From: a virus
Reading direction: 5' to 3' (one strand)
DNA length: 64,000 nucleotides
Virus genome (UHGV): UHGV-1351772
The first letter of the stretch is position 1, and the number at the start of each line of letters is the position of its first letter. Under the pieces are notes generated by a model. The model made no database searches, was not told the DNA's origin, and saw only the letters and a program-made list of their open reading frames with translations. Positions 1,261 to 39,731 of the stretch are shown one piece after another. A program made the translations under genes and the position numbers.

Positions 1261-4200
1261 ATGGACGACTGGGACGATTTTGATGAGCCCCCTCGTCAAC
1301 AAGACCAATCGCGTAACCCGGTCATGGACACATTTCGTGCTGCCCGTAAGTCGGCGTTGTCGACTATCTGGCCCGAAAACAAACGTGATCAGGTTATTTT
1401 AAAAGGGATGCCTAAACCTGCGGCAGAAGCCTACGAAGGCTATCAAAACGTTAAAGCTGCAGGTCAAGACATTCTGGCCCATACGAAAGACGAGATTGAA
1501 AAGACGTCTCGCGTCGTCAAGATGCAAGCGAGACAGTTAGGTCCAACACTGAAACGGTATTTACCGGAATCCGTAACACGGAAAATCGACAAGTGGGCAC
1601 GTAACGATCAAATCGACTATGGGAATTACGATCCTAAACAAGCGATGATGGATCGTGAGCTGGACAGCGTGTTCTCAGGCGCACCGCAAACAGCGGACCA
1701 GCAACGTGAGGCGCAAGAGGGGATGGTTGAAGACCGCTTGCGCGACACGATTAAGGACATGAAGTCCGACGCACTGTTCCAGACCGTAATCGGTATTGCA
1801 AAAGACGTCAACTTAACGACTAGCCTAAGTCGTGGCGTGTTGTTGAATGTTCAGCGTAAGCAGTTAGAGCTGCAATATCGGACGCTGTTTGCTTTGCAGG
1901 ATATTGCGAAACTCAAACAAGACGAGTTTGCACGCAACACCCCGGCATTAGAAGCCATCGTTAAGAACACGGCACTACCCGACTACGCGAAGGAAGAGTT
2001 TTCTGAAATTCGTTGGGCTAATGTAAAACGTAAAGCTGCGGAGTGGATGAACCCCTTACACTACGCAGATAATTTCATTGGCCAGATTCGCGAAAACGCG
2101 AAGAAGAAAATCTCGAACATCTTTAGTGATGGTCGTGGGATTCTAGAACAAGTTCTAGGGATGGCTCAGGAAGATGACTTTGACATGTCGGACAGCTCAT
2201 CGTTGTCTCCTGACCGTCGTAACACAAACTCGCGTAATAAAGCGGCAGGTTTTGCAGGTGGTTGGTTAGCAAAACGTCTCTTACAACCCCAGATCGAACG
2301 ACTTCAGAACTGGACGCGTGGCGAGCTAGAGAAAAACCCAGAAGTCATGAAACGCCTACAGTTGGCGAAGTATGGCTTTGGAAATTTGTCGTCTATTTCT
2401 AACTCGGCAATAGCGGGAGAAACAAGCGGTCCGTTAGCTGATCTGTTTCGACTAATGCACGATTTGGGACTAGTTAACCCGCTACGTCGCGAAACCTTAG
2501 CATTAGACGATCGTTCTGCGGAATCTCTTTCTGCGGCGGCGAAGTTCGATCGTAAAGCTTACCTTAGTATCACAGAAGTTATTCCGACGTTACTGTCCGA
2601 GATTAACAAATCTATTCGTCGTGGGTATGGCGAACACCACGATCAGGTTTATGACCTGACCACGCGCGGTATGGTGGATCGCAAAGTTATTGGTAATCGT
2701 GTACGTAAGGCCGTTGCTAATGACGATCAGCGCAAACGTTTACAGACGTACATCAACGACACTGTCGACTTTATCGATAAAGATAAAACGCTCGATAGGA
2801 AAACACGTCAAGCGTTAGCGGACTACATCGAGTCTCGTGCCTCGGAAGGGAAAGCGTTCGATGTAGGGTCTTTATTGAAAGACCCGATGCACATGTATCG
2901 ATACATGAACGCAAACGCTGTGGAAGCGATTCAGGGTGTTTTAGAAGCCCGTTCTGCGGAACTGGTTGGCGGACACCATGAACTGAGTAATGCGATTTCA
3001 AACAAAATCGCCGCTATCCAGTCAACGATTCGTGCACGTCAAGACACGGTTGATGCTGCGTCTGTGATTTACGGCGAGAACGCACTTCGTGATTCCGGTA
3101 TTTTTAAATACGATGCGAAGAAAGACATTTTCGAGGTCGATAAGGACATTAACGATCCCTATACGTTATTTAATGACCTGTCGATGGGTAAGACCCGCTC
3201 TGGACGTTCGTTAACCCGTGAGCAAGAGATTCAGCGTAAATTGCAAAACGGTTCTGCGCTGGGTGATTACTTGCGACGGATGGGTGCAGGCGCAGAGCCG
3301 AGCTTTGAAGACAAAGAACTGTCCAATGTACGTGGCGGTGGAAAAGGAGGTCGTGGTCGCGGTTTAAGCGCACGCCAACTCGCTGCGGTACTTTATGGAG
3401 AGAAATCCACTAACTTTGTTGAACTGTTAAGCAGTCGTCCAGACACGAACGCCGGGTTGGAACAGCAATTCGACCGTTTGATTGATGCTGTACGTAAACA
3501 GCCCGAATCTAGCACAGTGCAAGATATCCTCAAACACGTTAAGAACATGGATGAGGAAGGTATTCTCCTAGCCAGTTTAGGCGGTAGTCGTGATGACGGT
3601 GACGAATCTGAAAGTTCGAGTGACTCGGGTCGTAAACGTCGTCGTAAACGCAAACGTATTGTGCTAGGCGAGACAGGCTTGTTACGCCGTTGGGCTGGGG
3701 TGCTTTGGGATACCGGTTCAGGTGTAGGGCGGTTTGGTAAGAATCTGTTCCTACGTGGGAAAGATCGTCTGCAGGCTTTAGGTGGTTTTATCCGTGGGAA
3801 ATTCTCAGGCGGCTCCTCCGAAGGACCCGGTGTATTTAGCCGACTGAAAGGGTTAGTAACAGGTACTCTATCGACAGGTTGGAATTCTGCTGTAGCTTTC
3901 GGTAAAGGCGTTTTAGGTGTTCGTGATATTTACGATGAACGTGGCAACGTCGTATTACAAGGAAGTCGTTTAGAAGCTGGGGAATATTACCAGGCTGACC
4001 CGAAAACTGAGAAGCTGATTCAACTTAAAACCCTCGACGATATTAAACTGGGACGTGATATTGTCGATGAAGCGGGTAATTTAATCTTAGCTGCTGCTGA
4101 TTTGGCTGCCGCAGGTAAACTGCGTTTCTACAAAGGTGGTAAAGTTCAAGCGCTTTTCCAGTACATTTCTGGGAAAGCAGGAACGGCGGTAAACAAAGCT

Positions 4201-7200
4201 GTGACTTTACCGAAGAAACTTTTAGGCTTCATTTCACCTAAAGCGGCTTCGTTGTTCGAGAAAGCACGTGAGTGGCTAAATGAGGTTCCAGAGGGCGCAG
4301 AGAAAACCCGTTTACAAAGCATGATTTCCCGTGTAACGGGAATGCCAGCGCGTTTGTGGAACAATGCAAAACGCGGGTTTGAGAAGCTCAAAGAGTTGGC
4401 TTCTGATAACCCTCTGACACGTTGGTGGCAGAACCGTAAGGAAGGGGGTTCTGGTGGTGGGTTTAGTGTGTTCTCATGGTCGAACGGCCGTAAAACTAAC
4501 CACATCTTAATCCGTATCTACAAACTCCTTAACCGGAGATTGCCAGGTGAACCAGAAGATGATACCTGGACAGAACAGATGGAGCGGAATACGGGAGCCA
4601 GTTCAGTTAAAGGATTATTCCAACGTGCTAAAGACATACGCGATGGGTTCCGTGAACATTTTCAGGGGTTCCGGGATTGGCGCGGTCGGATGCGTGACAG
4701 AATGTCCCGTTATCGCGGTGCGGTAGGCGATCGTCTTTCTCGTTGGGGCGGTACCGCACGTGGTTGGTTTGATCGTTTCCGTGGCCGTGCAAGCGATATG
4801 GTCGATACTTTCCGCGATCCGCGTTACGATATCGGCACACGTTATCGAATGGAGAGTCGTTTAGCAGGACGCGATGACGATGTTGCTGAGTTTTATCGTC
4901 AACACATCTACGCAAGAGGTAAGGTGTCTAAAACACGTATCATCGATGCGGCAAAAGAAGACTTAGACACCGTAACGGATAGCGCTGGACGTGTGATTAA
5001 TAAAGGGAAACAGAAAGCCCGTAGCGTTGGGTCAGCTTTACTGGAACGCCTGAACCGAATGGTTAATCTTCAGGAAATGTCATGGTTTAACACCATGCGT
5101 GATTCTGCGGAAAAAGCAGGTGCTTCGGATGGTTTGTTAAGAACTATGTTCAGTAAGTTCGGCCAACGCAATAAACCGCCTGCCAGTGATGAAAAACGTG
5201 ATTACTTCCAGTTCTTCCGACGCCGTCGTCGTTCTAAGGAAGAGGAAAAGGCTAAGAAAGAAGCCGAGAAGAAAGGTGGTAAGCGCGGGGTGATGGATTT
5301 CCTTAAAGGACTGCCGTTGGTAGGACCGATTGTGAGTATTTTAGGCACAGTAGGTTCAATCTTAGGTAAAGTCGCGAAATGGGGAATCTTTAAGCCGGTT
5401 GGGTTTGCAGGCAAAGCGTTGTGGAACGTTGGTAAGTTTGCTGTGACTCGTTTGGCTGTCCCTGCGGTGAGTGCTGTCGCGACGGCAGCATCTGCAGTGG
5501 TAACTGCGGTTGGCTGGCCGATTATCGGTTTGGTCGCTGCAGGCGCTGCGCTATCTTGGTTTGCATATAAAACTGCAACCCGTGTGAATGCTCAGTATTT
5601 GGATAACATGCGATTGGCACAGTACGGATTTAGAGATCACGATGAGTGGTCTTCCGACGATGGCGCAAAAGCACGTTATTTAGAAGACAACTTGAAACCG
5701 TACATCTCTTATACAGAGAATGGCCAAGCACAGTTGCGTGGTTTGTCCGGTGACGACGTGAAGAAACTGGCCGAAGGGTTTGGTACTAACGTAGAAGACA
5801 AAGGCGAAATGCTGGCGTTTAGTGCGTTTATGCTACAACGTTTTGTGCCGATCTATTTACGTTGGATTACGGCACTGAAATCCATGGATAATGATATCGC
5901 GTTAGCAGATGTCGGTAATCCTGCGAAAGTGTCGAAGGCAGACATGTTGAATATCTTCAACAAAATGAAGATGTCGAAAGATGCGCCTGCATTCCGTGCA
6001 TTAGAAGATCCCCGCAAGGTTAACCAAGGTTGGTTCTCTAAAGCGTGGGATTTCGTAACGTTTACCCCGGCCGAGTTTTTGTCAGGCGAAGAAGTCGTTG
6101 AAGCGCAAGAACGCGTGCTTCGTTCGATTAACATGCGTCGTGATGAAAAACGTAAGGATGTAAATGCTACAGGCGGTGTGGCCGAAGGACACAAAGTTGC
6201 TTCTGTGGCAGAATCGACCCAAGCGTTGGCTCAAGCGGATGCGGAACGCAACAAAGAAGTTGCGAAAGTCGAAGGTTGGGAAGACGGCACCGAACAAGTT
6301 CAGGTTCAAGTCGACTGGAGAAGCTTACCTAAAGAAACCGATCTCCGTGATTTGGAGTCCGTAAGGTTGAAAGCTTATGGTGCGGTGAGTATTACTCAAA
6401 CAACCCGTAACCTCTATACGCTCTTGGAACGTCAAGTGTTGCAAGACACCGATGTGAAAAGCTGTACGTATAAAGGCGACTGGAAACGTGCGATTGCGGT
6501 GATTGCGCCTGACGCCATTGGTGGGCCAAAAGAAGATCGGTACAAGAACTGGTTCTATAACCGCTTCTTACCTGTCTTCATGACGTACGTGGTTGGGGTG
6601 AAACGTTATGTCCCTGCTGCCGATCCGATGGACCTACGCGTTACGGGTGGGTTCTTGTATGAAATCGCACTGATGATGCGTGGTGCATACAACCTGAAAG
6701 GGGGTATTCGTCAGTCAGTGTGGGAGGTACCGTTTAACCCGTTAGGGGGAGACGCTAACACCGACGCCGGTTCAGTTGCAACGGAGTTAGAGAACCTGAA
6801 AGAACTGTCTAAGGAAGCTGATTTGGCAGTACGTAAAACGCTGCGTGCTACGCCTTCTGCGGGTTTCCGTGTGAACTGGCAGCGAAAAGATCGCGCGACT
6901 CAGATGTTCTTGACCGACGATGAGAAGGAGCAACCGTCTCGACCACAGATGAACACCTCCTCCTCTTATCGTGACCTATTGCAACCAGCGGCAAACGACG
7001 GTGGGAATTACGGCACACCAAACGATTTGGCCGGTGCTTACGGTCAGATGGGAGCTAAGAATTACGCTGCATTTACTACCGGTAACTTCGGCGTGAAACT
7101 TGGCGATATGCAAGACGGTGACTATAAAACGTTAGCGGCTAAGTATCCAATTTCAACGTTGGGTGACGGATTGAAGCCTAACTTGAATGCGGTTGCAGCA

Positions 7201-8337
7201 CTGATTACAGACGTAGCGAAGATGATGGGTGTTCCTCCAGCGTTAGCACTGGGAATGGCACAAGCAGAATCTGGGCTTAGATACGGTATCAAAGCTAAAG
7301 GAAGTTCTGCGGCTGGCTTGTTCCAGTTCATCAACGATACCTGGGGTGCGCAGATGAAAGCTTATGCGAGACGTTATGGTATCCCGCAAACCAACCAGTA
7401 TGACCCGTGGGCGAATGCTCTGCTTGGCGTCCGTCATATTCGTGATAATATCGAGAAAGCCAGAAAGGATTTAGGTGGTATCGATCCTCCAGGTGCAGCT
7501 GTTTACCTCTACCACTTCTTAGGACAAGGTGGCGGTAAGAAATTCCTGCAAGAATGGAAGCGTGATCCGAACGGGCCATCGTCGCGTGGTGCGTCGGCCG
7601 ATCAAATCGCGGCAAACAGCACAATTTTCTACAAGAATGGAAAATTGCGTAGTTTGGATGAAGTGCTCAACATCATGGGTGGTAAGATTGGTGCTGTAGG
7701 AACAAACGCGATCGCGGCTAACCAGGCATCGCTGAAAGACTTGACGACAGGCGTAACACCAATGCCGTCTTCCCCGGCTATCGCTGCAGGCGCTGCTAAC
7801 GATCCGTCTATCACAGGCCCGGCAGATAACCTGCCAGCCGCGAACGAGGCGAATCGCGACTCCGCTTTAGCAGACAAAGGCGCGATGGGTGCTGAAGATA
7901 TTAAAGCTGCAACTGGTGGTGGTCCGGCTGTGCCGAGTCCTGGCGGCGATGTCACGCCGAGCGATGCGTCAGTTGTTGTAGAGACGGTGGGTCAAAATGC
8001 ACGTGCTGATGGCCTGGCCGAAGAAGAGGTTGCTAAAGTAAAAGAAGGTGCTAGACAGCAGATGGAGAAATCGGCCCGTCCTGCACCAACGGTAACTTCC
8101 GATGCTCAGAGCGGTTCTACAGTGAACAGTGGTGATCCGATCAGTGTACAACAGCTGGCGGTTGCAAAAGAGTCTGCAGGCTATCTGAAAGAGATTGTAA
8201 CAATTCTTCGCCAGCGGCCACAGGCTATGCAAAACGGTCCGGCTAACCCGGCGTCAACCGCTCCGGGTTCGGCGTCACGTAACGTGTCAATAACTCAACC
8301 CGCGCCGCAACTCGACGTTAGTCGTAAATCAGCGTAA
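1261..8337 (+). CDS. Giant virion-associated protein (2358 aa) with lytic transglycosylase domain; tail lysin / tape-measure-like
   Basis: Single uninterrupted ORF. Long helical N-terminal half with Gly-rich and basic RKRRRKRKR segments, hydrophobic cluster about aa 1335-1440, SLT motif near aa 1980-2100, Ala/Pro/Gly-rich C-terminus. Size and domain order resemble phiKZ gp181-type tail lysins (from memory, not searched). Confidence 0.8.
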   Translation: MDDWDDFDEPPRQQDQSRNPVMDTFRAARKSALSTIWPENKRDQVILKGMPKPAAEAYEGYQNVKAAGQDILAHTKDEIEKTSRVVKMQARQLGPTLKRYLPESVTRKIDKWARNDQIDYGNYDPKQAMMDRELDSVFSGAPQTADQQREAQEGMVEDRLRDTIKDMKSDALFQTVIGIAKDVNLTTSLSRGVLLNVQRKQLELQYRTLFALQDIAKLKQDEFARNTPALEAIVKNTALPDYAKEEFSEIRWANVKRKAAEWMNPLHYADNFIGQIRENAKKKISNIFSDGRGILEQVLGMAQEDDFDMSDSSSLSPDRRNTNSRNKAAGFAGGWLAKRLLQPQIERLQNWTRGELEKNPEVMKRLQLAKYGFGNLSSISNSAIAGETSGPLADLFRLMHDLGLVNPLRRETLALDDRSAESLSAAAKFDRKAYLSITEVIPTLLSEINKSIRRGYGEHHDQVYDLTTRGMVDRKVIGNRVRKAVANDDQRKRLQTYINDTVDFIDKDKTLDRKTRQALADYIESRASEGKAFDVGSLLKDPMHMYRYMNANAVEAIQGVLEARSAELVGGHHELSNAISNKIAAIQSTIRARQDTVDAASVIYGENALRDSGIFKYDAKKDIFEVDKDINDPYTLFNDLSMGKTRSGRSLTREQEIQRKLQNGSALGDYLRRMGAGAEPSFEDKELSNVRGGGKGGRGRGLSARQLAAVLYGEKSTNFVELLSSRPDTNAGLEQQFDRLIDAVRKQPESSTVQDILKHVKNMDEEGILLASLGGSRDDGDESESSSDSGRKRRRKRKRIVLGETGLLRRWAGVLWDTGSGVGRFGKNLFLRGKDRLQALGGFIRGKFSGGSSEGPGVFSRLKGLVTGTLSTGWNSAVAFGKGVLGVRDIYDERGNVVLQGSRLEAGEYYQADPKTEKLIQLKTLDDIKLGRDIVDEAGNLILAAADLAAAGKLRFYKGGKVQALFQYISGKAGTAVNKAVTLPKKLLGFISPKAASLFEKAREWLNEVPEGAEKTRLQSMISRVTGMPARLWNNAKRGFEKLKELASDNPLTRWWQNRKEGGSGGGFSVFSWSNGRKTNHILIRIYKLLNRRLPGEPEDDTWTEQMERNTGASSVKGLFQRAKDIRDGFREHFQGFRDWRGRMRDRMSRYRGAVGDRLSRWGGTARGWFDRFRGRASDMVDTFRDPRYDIGTRYRMESRLAGRDDDVAEFYRQHIYARGKVSKTRIIDAAKEDLDTVTDSAGRVINKGKQKARSVGSALLERLNRMVNLQEMSWFNTMRDSAEKAGASDGLLRTMFSKFGQRNKPPASDEKRDYFQFFRRRRRSKEEEKAKKEAEKKGGKRGVMDFLKGLPLVGPIVSILGTVGSILGKVAKWGIFKPVGFAGKALWNVGKFAVTRLAVPAVSAVATAASAVVTAVGWPIIGLVAAGAALSWFAYKTATRVNAQYLDNMRLAQYGFRDHDEWSSDDGAKARYLEDNLKPYISYTENGQAQLRGLSGDDVKKLAEGFGTNVEDKGEMLAFSAFMLQRFVPIYLRWITALKSMDNDIALADVGNPAKVSKADMLNIFNKMKMSKDAPAFRALEDPRKVNQGWFSKAWDFVTFTPAEFLSGEEVVEAQERVLRSINMRRDEKRKDVNATGGVAEGHKVASVAESTQALAQADAERNKEVAKVEGWEDGTEQVQVQVDWRSLPKETDLRDLESVRLKAYGAVSITQTTRNLYTLLERQVLQDTDVKSCTYKGDWKRAIAVIAPDAIGGPKEDRYKNWFYNRFLPVFMTYVVGVKRYVPAADPMDLRVTGGFLYEIALMMRGAYNLKGGIRQSVWEVPFNPLGGDANTDAGSVATELENLKELSKEADLAVRKTLRATPSAGFRVNWQRKDRATQMFLTDDEKEQPSRPQMNTSSSYRDLLQPAANDGGNYGTPNDLAGAYGQMGAKNYAAFTTGNFGVKLGDMQDGDYKTLAAKYPISTLGDGLKPNLNAVAALITDVAKMMGVPPALALGMAQAESGLRYGIKAKGSSAAGLFQFINDTWGAQMKAYARRYGIPQTNQYDPWANALLGVRHIRDNIEKARKDLGGIDPPGAAVYLYHFLGQGGGKKFLQEWKRDPNGPSSRGASADQIAANSTIFYKNGKLRSLDEVLNIMGGKIGAVGTNAIAANQASLKDLTTGVTPMPSSPAIAAGAANDPSITGPADNLPAANEANRDSALADKGAMGAEDIKAATGGGPAVPSPGGDVTPSDASVVVETVGQNARADGLAEEEVAKVKEGARQQMEKSARPAPTVTSDAQSGSTVNSGDPISVQQLAVAKESAGYLKEIVTILRQRPQAMQNGPANPASTAPGSASRNVSITQPAPQLDVSRKSA
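5305..5570 (+). other. Hydrophobic/transmembrane-like segment cluster inside the giant protein
   Basis: GLPLVGPIVSILGTVGSILGKVAKWGIF...AVPAVSAVATAASAVVTAVGWPIIGLVAAGAALSWFAY: several consecutive hydrophobic helices. Confidence 0.5.
7198..7572 (+). other. SLT (family 1 lytic transglycosylase) domain within giant protein
   Basis: GMAQAESGLRYGIKAKGSSAAGLFQFINDTWGAQMKAYARRYGIP ... LYHFLGQGGG: E-S catalytic motif and GLFQF..TW pattern typical of lysozyme-like lytic transglycosylases. Confidence 0.7.
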
Positions 8338-8384: not shown

Positions 8385-10556
8385 GTGGACGCTAGATCAG
8401 CTAACGACTCAAGCTGGGTCAGAAATCTATTTAAGGGAGAGTTGGAAGGCCGAGATGAACGTTTTCTGGCCTTGCGACGCTACTCTAACGGTATGATGTC
8501 TTTTGAAGATACGACCATGGGCGGTAGCAAAGCGATTAATAGCCCTCCACAGTTTACGTGGTTTGCAGACCCCCCATCAACAGGGGCATTTGCACGACCC
8601 GGTAATCGTGAAGCGGAGAAAAAGGCGTTGGCTAACGGTATGCCAACCTCTTCTTATCGCTTAGGGACGTATTATTACGAAAGCATTAACCAAAATTCGT
8701 TTTACGTACATTGTCGCTTCGGCAAGCCGAAATATCTGGGAATGGCCGCATTCTTTGCGAATATGTACGATTCCAACTTAGCGTATTTAGCGCGTACGGG
8801 CGATTATCCGGGAATGATCCGCACGATAGCAAGTTATATCGGTGCGGCAGCGATATGGGCCACTGTAGGCACTGTCGCTTTTGCGGTAATTTTAATTACT
8901 CCTCGCATTCTCGCAGCAGCGTTGAATAAACAAACGTCGCGTTACTATTACGTTAAACCGACGATGCATCTGTATTTGCGTGCTGTACAGAACATCTTGA
9001 ATACGCAGCTTGTTTATCGTCGTTTGGTTCCCACGGGTATCTTAGGTACCTTCCAGGTTAGTCAAGACGGCGATGGAAAAGGGAACAAAAAAGCACGTGA
9101 TGATGCTTTTGAAGCGTTGCCGGAGGTTTGGAAAAAAGACGGTGAATTCGATGTCTTTAAGATGATCAACCGTTATCAAACCCTGGCGAACTATCAGAAT
9201 CAACGTTTAAAAGAACTTCGTAAGCAGTCCTCAAGTGACGATGATTTCGCCGAGCGGATACGAAATTTCTATTTGGACAGCACATATGGTGCGGCTTCGT
9301 ATTCTGACGATGTGAGAAATTACGAAGTTTCTTTGCAAGACATGGAGCGGTTAGCTGCATCCGAGCGCGGTGGCTATGCGGCGAAAGACGCGTCGGGCAA
9401 AGATATTAATAGTGTTGATGAACTGGAAAAAGGGGTTCTCGATGCGTTTAGTTCCGGGCTACAAACTGGGGGAACGGCAAGCGACCTAGAGGCGCAGGCG
9501 GCAGAAATCCAAAACAAAATGAACGAGGATTTGGAAAATGCCGATGCGAGTAACCTCACCGAGGGACAACAGATTACGATACAGTCCTGGGCGGATAAAG
9601 GTAAAGAATCGACTATGGAGACGTTCTTCGGCGACTTTGTTAAAGTGGTTGGCGAACAGATTGAAGGGATTAAAGCACAGGCGCTGTCCGAAATCTACAA
9701 CGGTTCTCAGTGGGTAACCTGGAGAATCGATGGGAAGGACACCGTCTCTCGTTCGTTCTCTAACTCTACAAAAGAGCCGGAGATCTCTAGCACAGTTAAC
9801 TCAATGACAGCGAAAGCTCGTCAACTTGAAGTAAACTTGTCCGGCGGGCAAACCGGCTTCAACGCGGTCGATTCATTAATTACGGGCTTTAAGTCCGTAA
9901 TGCGTGGGTTAGCAGATACGTTGCATCTAACGGGGATTATGTCGTTATATAATTCATCCGTCATTGACTTCCCAGAGGTGTGGGACAGTTCAGATGCCTC
10001 GGGCGATGATATTAACTTGACAATACCTTTACGTGCATGGTCTGGAAGTGACCTGGATATCTTCCAGGAAATTCTAGTGCCACTATCCTTTTGGATCGCC
10101 GCAGTATGTCCAATTGCGACAGGTAAACAATCGTTCACTCATCCGTTTTATCTGGAGTGTTACTCGCAAGGTCGATTCTCGTTCCGTAATGCTATCGTAA
10201 CATCTTTGTCTTTACAATTCGGTGTGGGTGGTTTAGGTTGGCGACCAGGTGATTCTGTTCCACTGTCTTGTGATATCAATGTTACCATCCGTGATTTGTC
10301 GCGTGTGATGTATATGCCCATCGTTACAGACACAGGTGTTTGGGACGACGATAATAAATTCAGTGAGTTTATGGCGTGTTTGGGTGCAGCGACGTTGTAC
10401 GAACGTACGAACGGTATAGAGCGTGCCAAGATCCAAGGAAGCATTTGGGCGCAGAACTGGGCATCTGCGTGGTCACAGGGCAGTTTTATTAACTCTGCGT
10501 TTGATGTGCTTCCAGCACGCCAGATCGCGAACATCTTCTTGCCGCAAGCACGTTAA
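8385..10556 (+). CDS. Hypothetical protein, 723 aa, probable virion/tail protein (one predicted TM segment)
   Basis: GTG start at 8385 with AGAGG upstream; long ORF co-directional with and immediately after the giant virion gene; hydrophobic stretch AAIWATVGTVAFAVILITPRILAAAL. Confidence 0.65.
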   Translation: MDARSANDSSWVRNLFKGELEGRDERFLALRRYSNGMMSFEDTTMGGSKAINSPPQFTWFADPPSTGAFARPGNREAEKKALANGMPTSSYRLGTYYYESINQNSFYVHCRFGKPKYLGMAAFFANMYDSNLAYLARTGDYPGMIRTIASYIGAAAIWATVGTVAFAVILITPRILAAALNKQTSRYYYVKPTMHLYLRAVQNILNTQLVYRRLVPTGILGTFQVSQDGDGKGNKKARDDAFEALPEVWKKDGEFDVFKMINRYQTLANYQNQRLKELRKQSSSDDDFAERIRNFYLDSTYGAASYSDDVRNYEVSLQDMERLAASERGGYAAKDASGKDINSVDELEKGVLDAFSSGLQTGGTASDLEAQAAEIQNKMNEDLENADASNLTEGQQITIQSWADKGKESTMETFFGDFVKVVGEQIEGIKAQALSEIYNGSQWVTWRIDGKDTVSRSFSNSTKEPEISSTVNSMTAKARQLEVNLSGGQTGFNAVDSLITGFKSVMRGLADTLHLTGIMSLYNSSVIDFPEVWDSSDASGDDINLTIPLRAWSGSDLDIFQEILVPLSFWIAAVCPIATGKQSFTHPFYLECYSQGRFSFRNAIVTSLSLQFGVGGLGWRPGDSVPLSCDINVTIRDLSRVMYMPIVTDTGVWDDDNKFSEFMACLGAATLYERTNGIERAKIQGSIWAQNWASAWSQGSFINSAFDVLPARQIANIFLPQAR

Positions 10557-16404: not shown

Positions 16405-16432
16405 TACCCTACTCCTAGTCAGGAGTAGGGTA
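16405..16432 (-). terminator. Rho-independent terminator, CCCTACTCC-stem family
   Basis: TACCCTACTCCT-AGTC-AGGAGTAGGGTA hairpin, U-run on minus strand downstream; sits 5 nt after stop of 16437-17096. Confidence 0.7.
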
Positions 16433-16436
16433 GATG

Positions 16437-17096
16437 TTACATACGGGTAACTGAATCCCAGTAATCACGAAGATATTCTTGGTCTTCTGGGTCTTTCGGT
16501 GTAGCAGGGATATGACCGTCAAACTCAAACGGAATCACAGACAGAACATCGGCAATCTCGTAACGTTCGACTTCCAGTTCAACTTTCACCCAGTCACCGA
16601 CGCTGGTACTGCTACGCATTTCGGTGAGGAGATCGTTAAAGTCACCCGAAACCTCAATTGCTGGGTGTCCGGTGGTGACAGTGAAAATATCAATATCCCA
16701 ATGCTTAGCACCCTTATCGGCTAATTCACCCGGTTCTAAGTGAATACGTTTCACCAGGTGCGCCAAATAACCGTCCTTGTAAAAAGAGAGTGCAGAACTA
16801 ATCCCGATATCCGAATTCTCTTCAACCTTTCCGTCCAGGAATTTACGCTTAAGCGTTAGCTGTGCTGTACCGTCTTCTTTAATACGGATACGGCGACGCC
16901 CACCTTCTATCGGCATGAGAATGTCCATGAACATCTTAGTGGACTGTGCGTGTAGCCAATCCCATCCCGCTTGCGTAGGTTTAACCCAGACGCAATATTC
17001 CTTTTCCACTTCGCGTTTAATGGATTCGCCCGCAACGCGAATAACCTCTTCTTCCTGCGCTTTTTCCAATTGCGCAAGGGTATCGAATAATCCCAT
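16437..17096 (-). CDS. Hypothetical protein, 219 aa
   Basis: ORF in array; TAATG overlap with upstream gene. Confidence 0.6.
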   Translation of the reverse strand: MGLFDTLAQLEKAQEEEVIRVAGESIKREVEKEYCVWVKPTQAGWDWLHAQSTKMFMDILMPIEGGRRRIRIKEDGTAQLTLKRKFLDGKVEENSDIGISSALSFYKDGYLAHLVKRIHLEPGELADKGAKHWDIDIFTVTTGHPAIEVSGDFNDLLTEMRSSTSVGDWVKVELEVERYEIADVLSVIPFEFDGHIPATPKDPEDQEYLRDYWDSVTRM

Positions 17097-17916
17097 TAGA
17101 TTAATCCCATACTTTCACTGACGCTCGTAATGTCGAACGTTGTGTCGTTAAAGTCGATGTTTTCTACAATAGAAACCACCAGATTAGGAAGCCATTCCGA
17201 ATGGGGTGGTGTAATAACCCGGCCGTTCATAACGTAGTAATGCAAGAACGGTAATCCCATCGAATGGCAGTACGATAACACATTACCTAAGCAGCTTCCG
17301 TCAAACTTCAAGAGTCGGAGCTTACGCAATAATGCGTTTTGAAATGCACCGTTCGCGTAATCGCTAAACTCGCCAGGCCGATAATCCGTGCCCCCGTAGA
17401 TACTCGCCTTTAATCGTCGTCCGTGTTGTATACATTCAGCCCCAGTCAGGGTGCGTAATAAACGGATGTCAGGATATTCAGTTTCCAAACGACCCAAAGC
17501 GTTTATTCCGTAGCCTTTGTAGAACAGATAGTCTACGATCCTTAAATAATGATAGTAGCCTTCTAACGTTAAAAACTGACCGTGAATTGTGTCGAATTTC
17601 GCACCGTTAGGTTGCGCGTAGAAGTTACTGATCATTTTCCCTACGGTAGTACGACCGTTAGAGTAAAGGTTAAGATGGTTGATACCATCGGTAAAAGGGA
17701 GTTTTTCGGGTAACGCACAAACGTAGCCTAAACGACGAAGGTATAGGACATAAACAAAGCGCTCATCAGGAGTAAGCACGATGTTTGACGCGTTAACGTA
17801 TCCATTAGGATTATTTCGCCCAGGTTGATAACCCAGCGTTAATGCCAAAGCTTGATTGTCTTCGCCCTGGCTTTTGATCTTCTTTAATACGGAACGCAGT
17901 AATTGTGGTTCGGACA
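17096..17916 (-). CDS. Putative NADAR (YbiA/DUF1768-like) domain protein
   Basis: Start moved to ATG 17916 (AAGAGG SD; MSEPQLL...). Segment VGKMISNFYAQPNGAKFDTIHGQFLTLEGYYHYLRI and later YANGAFQNALLRKLR resemble by eye the NADAR pattern G.FSNF..P....G..F.T.EHYFQA.K ... G.N.LG..LM.LR. Confidence 0.4.
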
Positions 17917-17927
17917 TAACCGGCCTC

Positions 17928-19202
17928 TTAAATTGCAAAATAGTCTTCCACGATTTTATCGGTAGACTGGTAACTTACACTGCCTGCAGCAATCACGTAA
18001 TTACGTTTCTCGGTGGTTAGTAGCGCCTGAATCGCATTTACGCCCGCATAGGTGTAAAGTTTAAGTTCAGTCATTTCTGGCGTGATGTTTTTCGCTTTGT
18101 CCCATTTTGCATCTAATCCTTTAAATAGCGTTAATAGACGAGTGCCATACGTTTTGAAACTGACACCGGGTTCAACCCGAAGGTTAGCCATAAGGTTCTG
18201 GATAACGGTGGTTGCGATCTGAGTCCCTTGCCCCGGTTGGAGTTTATCCAGATAGTATTCCGTTGAATCCAGATTACCTGTCGCTGCTGCCTGAATCATC
18301 AGCTCGCCGTACAGTACCTCTTTCGCTTGTGCATCAGTAATCGCTTGAAGCATCGGTTCGATTTTAGCCGGTAAACCATAACTGTTCAGTTTAGTAGACA
18401 GGCCATAAATCAGCGCTGAAGAGGTATTAATGTCTAACGTGGAGAAACTGTTGCTGCCTTTAAAGCTGTTAATCAGGTTATCGATGGCTAGGAAGTCGTC
18501 TAAGTCTTTGTAGCTGTCGAAAGTATGCTGTACGTCATCAACGATCGAGGTGATTTGATAACGCATACTGTTGACTTCGGACATAAAGCCGTTGACTTCT
18601 TGACTAACTTCCGAGGGGAGTTTAGCCAGTTGCCCAGCAATGTTCATCGTCCCTTCGAGACGTTTTTTCACTGAGTTAAAGTCGGTGCCGATACCTGATA
18701 AAACAGAGTCGGTTAAGCTGCCGATGCTGTCCCACCCTTTATTTAACAGTTTCCCCATCCCACCCGGACTTAGGTAGTCTAGCGCTTTTAGACCATCTTC
18801 ATCCTTTTTCTTAAAAGGTTCAGAAACGTCACGCTTTTGTGGATCGAGGACAGGAAGTGTTTCTTTGGTATTAGATGCAAACCCGGGAACTTTTTGTCCC
18901 GGAGATACACCGGAAGCCGAACTCCCAGCAGTCTTACTTCCGCCAACACTGGCGGTATCACTACCGCCAAAAAGGTTACCAATTTTGCTGGTCAGTTCGT
19001 TACCACCGCCAATCAGTTTGTTGAATGTTTCACCCGCACGTTCTGACAATCGGTTGACGCTATCGACCGTGCTTTTAATACCACGCTCCGCATTCTCCAC
19101 CGTCGATTGTACGCGGTTTGCGGCGTTCTTTGCCGTATTAACGGAATTATCGATTGCTGACTGACCTTTATTTATCTGACTGGTTATTTGGTCGATTTTC
19201 AT
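17928..19202 (-). CDS. Hypothetical protein, ~424 aa (Ser/Gly/Thr-rich N-terminal region)
   Basis: Start placed at ATG 19202 (GGAGA SD; MKIDQITSQ...); ORF track start 19229 is a non-ATG codon further upstream. Confidence 0.55.
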   Translation of the reverse strand: MKIDQITSQINKGQSAIDNSVNTAKNAANRVQSTVENAERGIKSTVDSVNRLSERAGETFNKLIGGGNELTSKIGNLFGGSDTASVGGSKTAGSSASGVSPGQKVPGFASNTKETLPVLDPQKRDVSEPFKKKDEDGLKALDYLSPGGMGKLLNKGWDSIGSLTDSVLSGIGTDFNSVKKRLEGTMNIAGQLAKLPSEVSQEVNGFMSEVNSMRYQITSIVDDVQHTFDSYKDLDDFLAIDNLINSFKGSNSFSTLDINTSSALIYGLSTKLNSYGLPAKIEPMLQAITDAQAKEVLYGELMIQAAATGNLDSTEYYLDKLQPGQGTQIATTVIQNLMANLRVEPGVSFKTYGTRLLTLFKGLDAKWDKAKNITPEMTELKLYTYAGVNAIQALLTTEKRNYVIAAGSVSYQSTDKIVEDYFAI

Positions 19203-20010
19203 TCTGGTCTCCAATTTGGTATTCGTCAAGGTTTACCGTGACCTGAACTTCGTAGATTTTATTGTCTTTCTGACGCCTTAAGGTCAGAAGGATTTCGAAA
19301 CTACGAACATCAATTGCCTTGAGTACCCTCATAAACCATTTCCAGGAAAACTTCTTTTTTAACCTTAGATTGTGCTGCATGTTGTGCCGCAAATCATTTC
19401 GTTTCGACGGTGTCTGCTCACAGTTAGCAGGATCGTTAACGAAGTTTGTGGAAAGACGGTACCACCAATCCGCATTCATTTTCATGTTTGCGAAGATAGT
19501 CCAAGTTAGCCGAGATAACGGATGCACCATCATCTTTGCGGTCTCACCACAGTTCTGGAAATAACGGTTCAATTGCGCAGTTGCAGACTCTTTAGGTCGT
19601 TCGTCGTTATCTTCGAACAAATCCCGAGCGAGATCTTCACGCACGCGTGTGGTAATTTCAGATACGGTTTTTGTTTTGAAGTGTCCTCGGTAAGTGGTTA
19701 CACAAATCCGCAGTGTCTCCACTCCGGTAATCACCAACCCTTCTGTAAAACCTCGCCAGGTAAGATCGACAGGTAGTGCAGGAATGTTACCTGAACTCAG
19801 CTTCGTGGAGATACGTTGTATTCGATCGTCCATCGTTGCTTTTGAACGTGTTTTAAATTCCGGAGACAGAATATGTTTGGCGACGGCGAGTTTATAATCC
19901 GAAGGCTTCCATCCGATCAATTCTTTATAATTCCAATATAGTGTTTGAAGTGGTCCGCCTGCACGTTCGTCTTCAGCGTCCACGACCACACTTACTTTTT
20001 TGCTATCCAT
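19168..20010 (-). CDS. Hypothetical protein, ~280 aa
   Basis: ATG 20010 with AAGGTGA SD; 3' end overlaps next gene start by ~35 nt. Confidence 0.55.
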   Translation of the reverse strand: MDSKKVSVVVDAEDERAGGPLQTLYWNYKELIGWKPSDYKLAVAKHILSPEFKTRSKATMDDRIQRISTKLSSGNIPALPVDLTWRGFTEGLVITGVETLRICVTTYRGHFKTKTVSEITTRVREDLARDLFEDNDERPKESATAQLNRYFQNCGETAKMMVHPLSRLTWTIFANMKMNADWWYRLSTNFVNDPANCEQTPSKRNDLRHNMQHNLRLKKKFSWKWFMRVLKAIDVRSFEILLTLRRQKDNKIYEVQVTVNLDEYQIGDQNENRPNNQSDK

Positions 20011-39225: not shown

Positions 39226-39235
39226 GATAATATCT
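39226..39235. promoter_or_regulatory. GATAATATCT element
   Basis: Third exact copy of the 10-mer, upstream of the secreted lytic transglycosylase gene. Confidence 0.3.
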
Positions 39236-39731
39236 ATTTAAAAGAGTTTGGAATTAATGACTCTGCTTCTTGATACAACTTATCAGGTAAGTATAACGTG
39301 TAGCGTTGCCTCCTCGGTTCAAGTTTTTTGTAAAGCCACAAAAAGATTTCTTGTCTTTCCCAGGAATCTAACCACCCGTTTGCCATTCCAAGTGGAGGGA
39401 TAGCAACGCTGGTATCCAGATCCTCAGCACAATCCGCCAGTGCGGTAATGCCCGCAGTAACATAAGAAACCTGGGACTTTAAGCGCCAATGGGTTTTCGT
39501 GGGGAGCAAGATACACTTTTCGTCAGAGTAAACGTAAACGTTTCCAATCTTAATTTCGTTTTCACGACACCGCTTACGATAATTCTGGTAAAGGTTGGGG
39601 TAGCGTTCACGACACGCGAGTGCAATGCCGCGACCCATCGCTCCTACGCAGTTAATGGTAACGACTTTATAGTCTTCGGGCGCATTAAAAAGATCGTTAT
39701 CAATTTCAGATTCTTTACGTACCGTTAACAT
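39234..39731 (-). CDS. Macro domain protein, TARG1/OARD1-like
   Basis: Start moved to ATG 39731 (MLTVRKE...). NDLF...VVTINCVGAMGRGIALACRERYP and VAIPPLGMANGWLDSWERQEIF resemble by eye TARG1 GDLF..[25 protein letters not shown] and LSMPRIGCGLDRLQWENV. Confidence 0.55.
   Translation of the reverse strand: MLTVRKESEIDNDLFNAPEDYKVVTINCVGAMGRGIALACRERYPNLYQNYRKRCRENEIKIGNVYVYSDEKCILLPTKTHWRLKSQVSYVTAGITALADCAEDLDTSVAIPPLGMANGWLDSWERQEIFLWLYKKLEPRRQRYTLYLPDKLYQEAESLIPNSFK

Follow-up and report, generated by a model that had tools for sequence, protein, structure and literature searches.

The window analysed here, a 64,000-nucleotide stretch of the virus genome UHGV-1351772, carries on its minus strand a gene for a 273-residue protein that we assign with high confidence, from its predicted fold and its homology, to the NADAR superfamily (YbiA fold) as a strongly diverged member of the histidine type (Table 1). 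The open reading frame (ORF) spans 17096..17938 with its ATG at 17917, which we take as the start because a Shine-Dalgarno sequence and the public gene calls, which give an identical 273-residue product, agree on it; a less likely start is the in-frame TTG at 17938, which falls within the upstream gene. The first-pass annotation, which had placed a possible NADAR (YbiA-like) protein at 17096-17916, was right about the gene but set its end one base short, and the frame so defined is full of stops. The exact protein is also present on contig CYGL01000001.1 (228,572 bp) of NCBI assembly GCA_001292545.1 and on metagenome contigs. Comparison with a 97.8%-identical copy shows differing codons of which 10 are synonymous and 7 non-synonymous.

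Table 1. Features of the NADAR-like gene, its neighbours and a distant macrodomain gene, with positions numbered along the window.
Feature	Position	Strand	Description
NADAR-like coding sequence	17096..17917	minus	273 aa plus TAA stop; homolog of SPN3US_0224 and Asesino gp246; phrog_652
Shine-Dalgarno AAGAGG	17924..17929	minus	6 nt 5' of the ATG; overlaps the stop codon of the upstream gene; read from sequence
N-terminal extension, residues 1-73	17699..17917	minus	three helices, two short strands, one low-confidence loop
NADAR-like core, residues 74-255	17153..17698	minus	two insertions, at about residues 128-150 and 171-186, in comparison with gp30.3 and YbiA
SNF motif, S97-N98-F99	17621..17629	minus	common to YbiA (FSNF) and T4 gp30.3 (LSNF)
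Glu119 codon GAA	17561..17563	minus	aligns with AdfN E36 and the Glu of the YbiA T-S-E-H motif
Arg126 codon AGG	17540..17542	minus	Glu119 +7; site of the phosphate/adenine-binding Lys (AdfN K43)
His226 codon CAT	17240..17242	minus	invariant H-Y-Y motif; aligns with T4 gp30.3 H123
Downstream gene	16437..17096	minus	219 aa; phrog_7768; homolog of SPN3US_0225; TAATG overlap with the NADAR-like stop
Strong intrinsic-terminator-like hairpin	16405..16432	minus	12-bp stem with 6 G-C pairs, T-rich tail; directly after the downstream gene
Upstream gene	17928..19229	minus	433-aa ORF (424 aa in public calls); phrog_5028; homolog of SPN3US_0223 and Asesino gp245
Macrodomain protein	39234..39731	minus	PF01661, 28 bits; 60% identical to Asesino gp217 (AdfM)

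A tblastn search with the protein matched 193 phage records, all below 60% identity and all annotated as hypothetical protein, which take in SPN3US-like and Erwinia jumbo phages, Ackermannviridae-sized phages of Salmonella, Serratia and E. coli, and 157-kb Vibrio phages. Of the relatives with names, Erwinia phages Stratton and Asesino come nearest (46-47% identity), followed by Salmonella phage SPN3US (44%). An exhaustive HMMER search returned 367 cluster representatives at E<=1e-3, most of them 150-190 aa in length, stand-alone and matched to residues 74-255; P0048 (1656 aa, 14 matched stretches) was dismissed as spurious, an Ig-repeat protein whose matches fall on the low-complexity N-terminal loop. 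Because homologs occur in so many records and representatives, the ORF is a real gene and not a chance reading frame. In PHROGs the protein falls into phrog_652 (E 9e-67), a family of unknown function. The N-terminal extension is limited to the long forms of jumbo phages and is missing from the 150-190 aa stand-alone relatives. Such extra N-terminal sequence had been noticed in the first pass and estimated at about 100 residues; it does exist, but amounts to some 75-80 aa, as the NADAR-like core begins near residue 75-80.

The superfamily assignment was reached by comparing profiles and by modelling the structure. A family profile built from 144 domain sequences was compared by hhalign with a profile of 108 full-length homologs of T4 gp30.3, all of which belong to Pfam PF08010 and some to PF08719 too. 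The two aligned over 142 columns, covering the whole of gp30.3, with a probability of 97.4-98.1% and E values of 1.1e-11 (local) and 4.6e-13 (global); as controls, the reversed gp30.3 profile gave E 0.021, column-shuffled gp30.3 profiles E 0.26-0.66, and an unrelated family profile E 0.41. The family profile likewise matched the single E. coli YbiA sequence (89.7%, E 1.9e-6, 137 columns), and the gp30.3 profile matches YbiA (2b3w) at E 0.002. AlphaFold2, given a 32-sequence alignment from two homolog searches, produced a confident model with a predicted local distance difference test score (pLDDT) of 92.1 and a predicted template modelling score of 0.89. When this model was compared by Foldseek with the viral models in BFVD, uncharacterised family members came first, including a "DprA-like protein" of Erwinia phage RAY, and from E ~0.05 upward the matches were mostly NADAR-annotated proteins of giant viruses and phages. 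The profile homology to gp30.3 and YbiA and the structure-model matches thus bear out the earlier call at the level of fold and superfamily, and the three peptides on which it had been based are all present: GKMISNFY (residues 93-100), FLTLEGYYHY (115-124) and NGAFQNALLRKLR (189-201). The protein belongs to a separate clade, made up of phrog_652 and phrog_11222, that databases do not recognise and that lies nearest to the histidine-type phage NADARs.

Three positions are central to NADAR active sites: a glutamate that contacts the distal ribose (PnNADAR E43, C7 E88), a lysine seven residues further on that binds phosphate and adenine (K50, K95), and a residue of the last strand whose identity differs by group, the YbiA family having Glu there, DarT1-associated NADARs Asp and phage NADARs (gp30.3) His (PMC11543638, PMC11125620). 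Either of the mutations E36A and K43A inactivates AdfN, whose authors equate E36 with the PnNADAR residue that contacts ADP-ribose (PMC11257639); the PnNADAR counterpart of E36 is E43 by motif and spacing, and that of K43 is K50 by spacing. Close inspection of the family alignment reveals that E119 and N83 are each present in all 144 members, H226 in 143 and K199 in 137 of the 144, while S97, N98 and F99 are each kept in about 95%; H123, the gp30.3 counterpart of H226, is invariant in its own family. Position 126 is more variable, with R in 46 members, K in 35 and a non-basic residue in 63, so that only 81 of the 144 have K or R. From these alignments, E119, R126 and H226 are the predicted equivalents of the ribose-binding, phosphate-binding and third-position residues of NADARs.

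Relatives of the protein are found fused to a recurrent set of domains: DUF4326/DUF488-N3a (P0118, P0121, P0138, P0147, P0128), YAcAr or DprA-like SLOG domains (P0107, P0176, P0124, P0171), a uracil-DNA-glycosylase-superfamily domain (P0156, E 7e-14) and, weakly, Macro (P0106). The short NADAR-like gene of a 182-kb relative has its start overlapped by a DUF488-N3a gene. Fusion or adjacency to DUF4326/DUF488-N3a is a repeated feature of short relatives, the locus at 5196..6008 of the distant relative L005 among them. DUF4326, SLOG and Macro domains are partners of viral NADARs according to Iyer et al. (PMC9503650, PMC7824862), and the match between these published partners and the fusions seen here therefore supports the NADAR assignment; the clade was probably already counted as NADAR in those surveys. 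The uracil-DNA-glycosylase fusion hints at a DNA substrate. In bacterial loci with short relatives, no informative toxin partner was seen.

The gene order around the NADAR-like gene matches SPN3US_0218-0229 and Asesino gp238-gp251, a syntenic block conserved in nucleus-forming jumbo phages that holds thymidylate synthase, a UvsX-like protein and a fragment of an RNA polymerase beta subunit. Identity between the NADAR-like protein and its Asesino ortholog is 46%, while that of its neighbours to theirs is 59-86%. The gene downstream, which adjoins the NADAR-like gene in all long-form phages examined except one (L009), is probably translationally coupled to it because of the TAATG overlap between the two, and the hairpin that follows probably marks the end of the transcription unit to which the NADAR-like gene belongs. 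The upstream gene stops 10 nt before the NADAR-like ATG. This short gap, the stop/start overlap and the hairpin therefore place the gene near the end of a tightly packed minus-strand string.

The downstream product was considered as a CYTH triphosphate-tunnel enzyme from the by-eye order of its motifs (E-x-E-K, RRRVR, LTLKR, WDIDVF, VELEVE) and this candidate was rejected: HMMER found no match in Pfam or the PDB, E. coli YgiF scored E 0.26 in hhalign, and an AlphaFold2 model from the single sequence was unusable (pLDDT 32). The upstream product has a coiled-coil-like N-terminal third, resembles tail, tape-measure and baseplate-hub PHROGs only weakly (E ~3e-4), and might be a virion protein.

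Approximately 21 kb from the NADAR-like gene lies a homolog of AdfM, the nucleus-localised anti-DarT2 de-ADP-ribosylase of chimalliviruses (Asesino gp217), which reverses thymine ADP-ribosylation of DNA (PMC13309987). The source phage appears to be an SPN3US/Asesino-like jumbo phage, and megablast matched the region to none of 50,697 deposited phage records (INPHARED). Elsewhere in the window, two very large plus-strand ORFs at 1261..8337 and 8385..10556 encode proteins of 2358 and 723 aa, the second of which is 37% identical to a 708-aa protein of L005, where the adjoining 2279-aa protein carries a lytic transglycosylase (SLT) domain; both products are probably giant virion-associated proteins.

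Judging from homology and genomic context, the protein is probably, if by no means certainly, an ADP-ribose or related N-glycohydrolase. Glu119 and His226 would flank the distal ribose, Arg126 and a G-R motif (Arg167) would grip the diphosphate, and ADP-ribose would be cut from the nitrogen of a base, at an N-glycosidic linkage, in a reaction that depends on Glu119 and His226. The likeliest substrate would be guanine-linked ADP-ribose placed on the phage DNA by DarT1-type host toxins, so that the NADAR-like enzyme would complement the thymine-specific macrodomain AdfM of the same phage. A role specifically in counter-defence against DarT1, drawn from homology and genomic context, is nevertheless a tentative proposal and itself somewhat doubtful. 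The N-terminal extension (~75 aa, confined to the SPN3US/Erwinia jumbo-phage clade) could, speculatively, serve in targeting or substrate binding.

Several observations weigh against this reading, beginning with the fold. Neither the protein nor its 32 closest homologs has a Pfam match even at E<=10, and hence none reaches the gathering threshold of PF08719 (NADAR), which appears only below threshold in distant relatives (P0160, E 0.0046; a protein of L017, E 0.0099). The first-pass annotation had proposed precisely this Pfam search and had named the lack of a significant NADAR profile hit as grounds for refutation; by that criterion, the failure of these standard searches would amount to such a refutation. 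The 36-bit cut-off of PF08010 is missed as well, with the protein unmatched and its best relatives scoring 13.6-18.8 bits, and by these thresholds the protein lies outside both families. NCBIfam has no match for it, phmmer and hmmsearch against PDB sequences returned nothing relevant and no NADARs, and Foldseek against the PDB gave a best E of 2.8 with all matches unrelated and no NADARs among them, a failure that we read as lower sensitivity. Identity to NADAR structures is 12-16%. At the active site, characterised NADARs depend on a lysine that is Arg here and non-basic in 44% of the family, and the K95R variant of the E. coli C7 NADAR keeps its activity in vitro but loses the ability to rescue cells from DarT1 (PMC11543638). 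As for the context, the neighbouring genes contain no ADP-ribosyltransferase or DarT domain, and in each of the five further long-form loci inspected the gene keeps its fixed place in the conserved block, which also holds a virion RNA polymerase subunit and, in SPN3US, genes (219, 222 and 225) bearing amber mutations in a conditional-lethal pool (PMC5105663); such a strictly syntenic core placement is unusual for an accessory anti-defence gene. Finally, Iyer et al. (2022) hold that phage NADARs mostly process soluble ADP-ribose derivatives and not DNA adducts (PMC9503650).

The processing of a soluble ADP-ribose derivative is a serious rival, and the broader proposal that the same fold cleaves an N-glycosidic bond in some small molecule, not in DNA adducts, survives best among the alternatives, even if we consider it unlikely. 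The substrate could be a soluble ADP-ribose-derived immune signal or toxin, such as isomers of cyclic ADP-ribose or ADP-ribose-1''-phosphate (ADPr-1''P), or an intermediate of nucleotide metabolism, as for YbiA in riboflavin synthesis. Iyer et al. argue from the distribution of phage NADARs and from their associations with SLOG, Macro, Nudix and DUF4326 (PMC9503650), and fusions of these same kinds occur in the NADAR-like family; moreover, thymidylate synthase is encoded a few genes away, in a region rich in nucleotide metabolism, and YbiA is annotated as an N-glycosidase. Against this, all phage NADARs tested so far, the histidine-type AdfN included, hydrolysed guanine-ADP-ribose on DNA, the relative fused to a uracil-DNA-glycosylase-superfamily domain points to DNA, and the same phage keeps a homolog of the DNA-directed AdfM.

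Less probable still is that phrog_652 and phrog_11222 constitute a deep NADAR clade whose long form became a fixed core gene of nucleus-forming jumbo phages, acting in the phage nucleus, with something other than DarT1-modified guanine as its substrate, and thus serving as a housekeeping enzyme, not as optional anti-defence. Such a clade would have a signature of its own (D-G-x-x-H-x-N-x-Y-S, L-E-G, H-Y-Y, W) in which the lysine is dispensable, and the gene would be co-transcribed with the SPN3US_0225-like gene; the substrate might be, for example, the recently reported cytidine-ADPr or an adduct arising from the phage's own nucleic-acid metabolism.

Lower in probability again is a NADAR-derived protein that has lost catalysis and plays a structural or binding role within the SPN3US_0218-0225 block, as a component of the virion, phage nucleus or replication factory or as a sensor of ADP-ribose or nucleotides, which would suit the extra N-terminal domain, the insertions, the unconserved canonical lysine and the strictly kept place beside genes with amber mutations in the conditional-lethal pool (SPN3US 219, 222 and 225; PMC5105663), but which we regard as very improbable, since Glu119, His226, Asn83, S-N-F and Lys199 are (nearly) invariant even among very distant members, 150-aa stand-alone forms included, as expected of a preserved active site, and since SPN3US gene 224 is not among the listed amber hits and gp224 is not mentioned in the main text of that study.

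Reading the protein as a NADAR-type hydrolase gives a testable function to the widespread phrog_652 family, which is annotated as hypothetical throughout and is missed by curated domain models. A further suggestion is that a NADAR accompanies the recently described AdfM in the nucleus-forming jumbo phages of the Asesino/SPN3US clade, and the two together may supply both known chemistries for reversing DNA ADP-ribosylation. Nowhere in the literature did we see SPN3US gp224 or Asesino gp246 described as a NADAR, the supplementary files of Iyer et al. 2022 standing outside this search. Earlier superfamily-wide surveys (Iyer et al. 2021, 2022; PMC7824862, PMC9503650) covered jumbo-phage NADARs and their DUF4326, SLOG and Macro fusions, and for this reason the advance is incremental, consisting of an annotation and a concrete hypothesis: a genuine and fairly ordinary addition to a class of enzymes already known, which probably serve phages in counter-defence.

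Among known systems, the closest characterised relative and the best profile-profile match is T4 gp30.3, also called AdfN, a histidine-type phage NADAR (PF08010, Phage_30_3). Both proteins are encoded by phages and share the L-S-N-F motif, an L-E-G-aromatic motif with the catalytic Glu, a G-x-x-A-x-x-x-G-R motif and a His in place of the YbiA-type Glu. However, AdfN, which neutralises DarTG1, is a stand-alone protein of 152 aa from T4-like phages with a Lys at the +7 position, whereas the protein described here, at 273 aa, has an N-terminal extension, two insertions and an Arg at that position; it departs from the stand-alone ~150-aa T4-superfamily architecture of the gp30.3/AdfN family in belonging to an SPN3US-like jumbo phage, where it sits in a core block, and it has invariant signatures of its own (D-G-x-x-H-x-N-x-Y-S, H-Y-Y, W242). 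In comparison with E. coli YbiA and the Phytophthora nicotianae NADAR (PF08719; 2b3w, 8bau), to which it is 15-16% identical, its His226 takes the place of the YbiA-family Glu, no D-x-x-W-G motif is evident, and PF08719 is unmatched. DarG1, the DarT1-associated NADAR antitoxin (BC4488 family; G. lovleyi 8bat, E. coli C7), differs in its catalytic Asp (D171), a position occupied here by His, and in its adjacent DarT, the gene in the window being an orphan phage gene. AdfM, in contrast, has an unrelated macrodomain fold and an experimentally demonstrated, thymine-specific activity, and its likeness to the NADAR-like protein is that of a functional analogue within the same phage lineage, acting inside the phage nucleus (PMC13309987).
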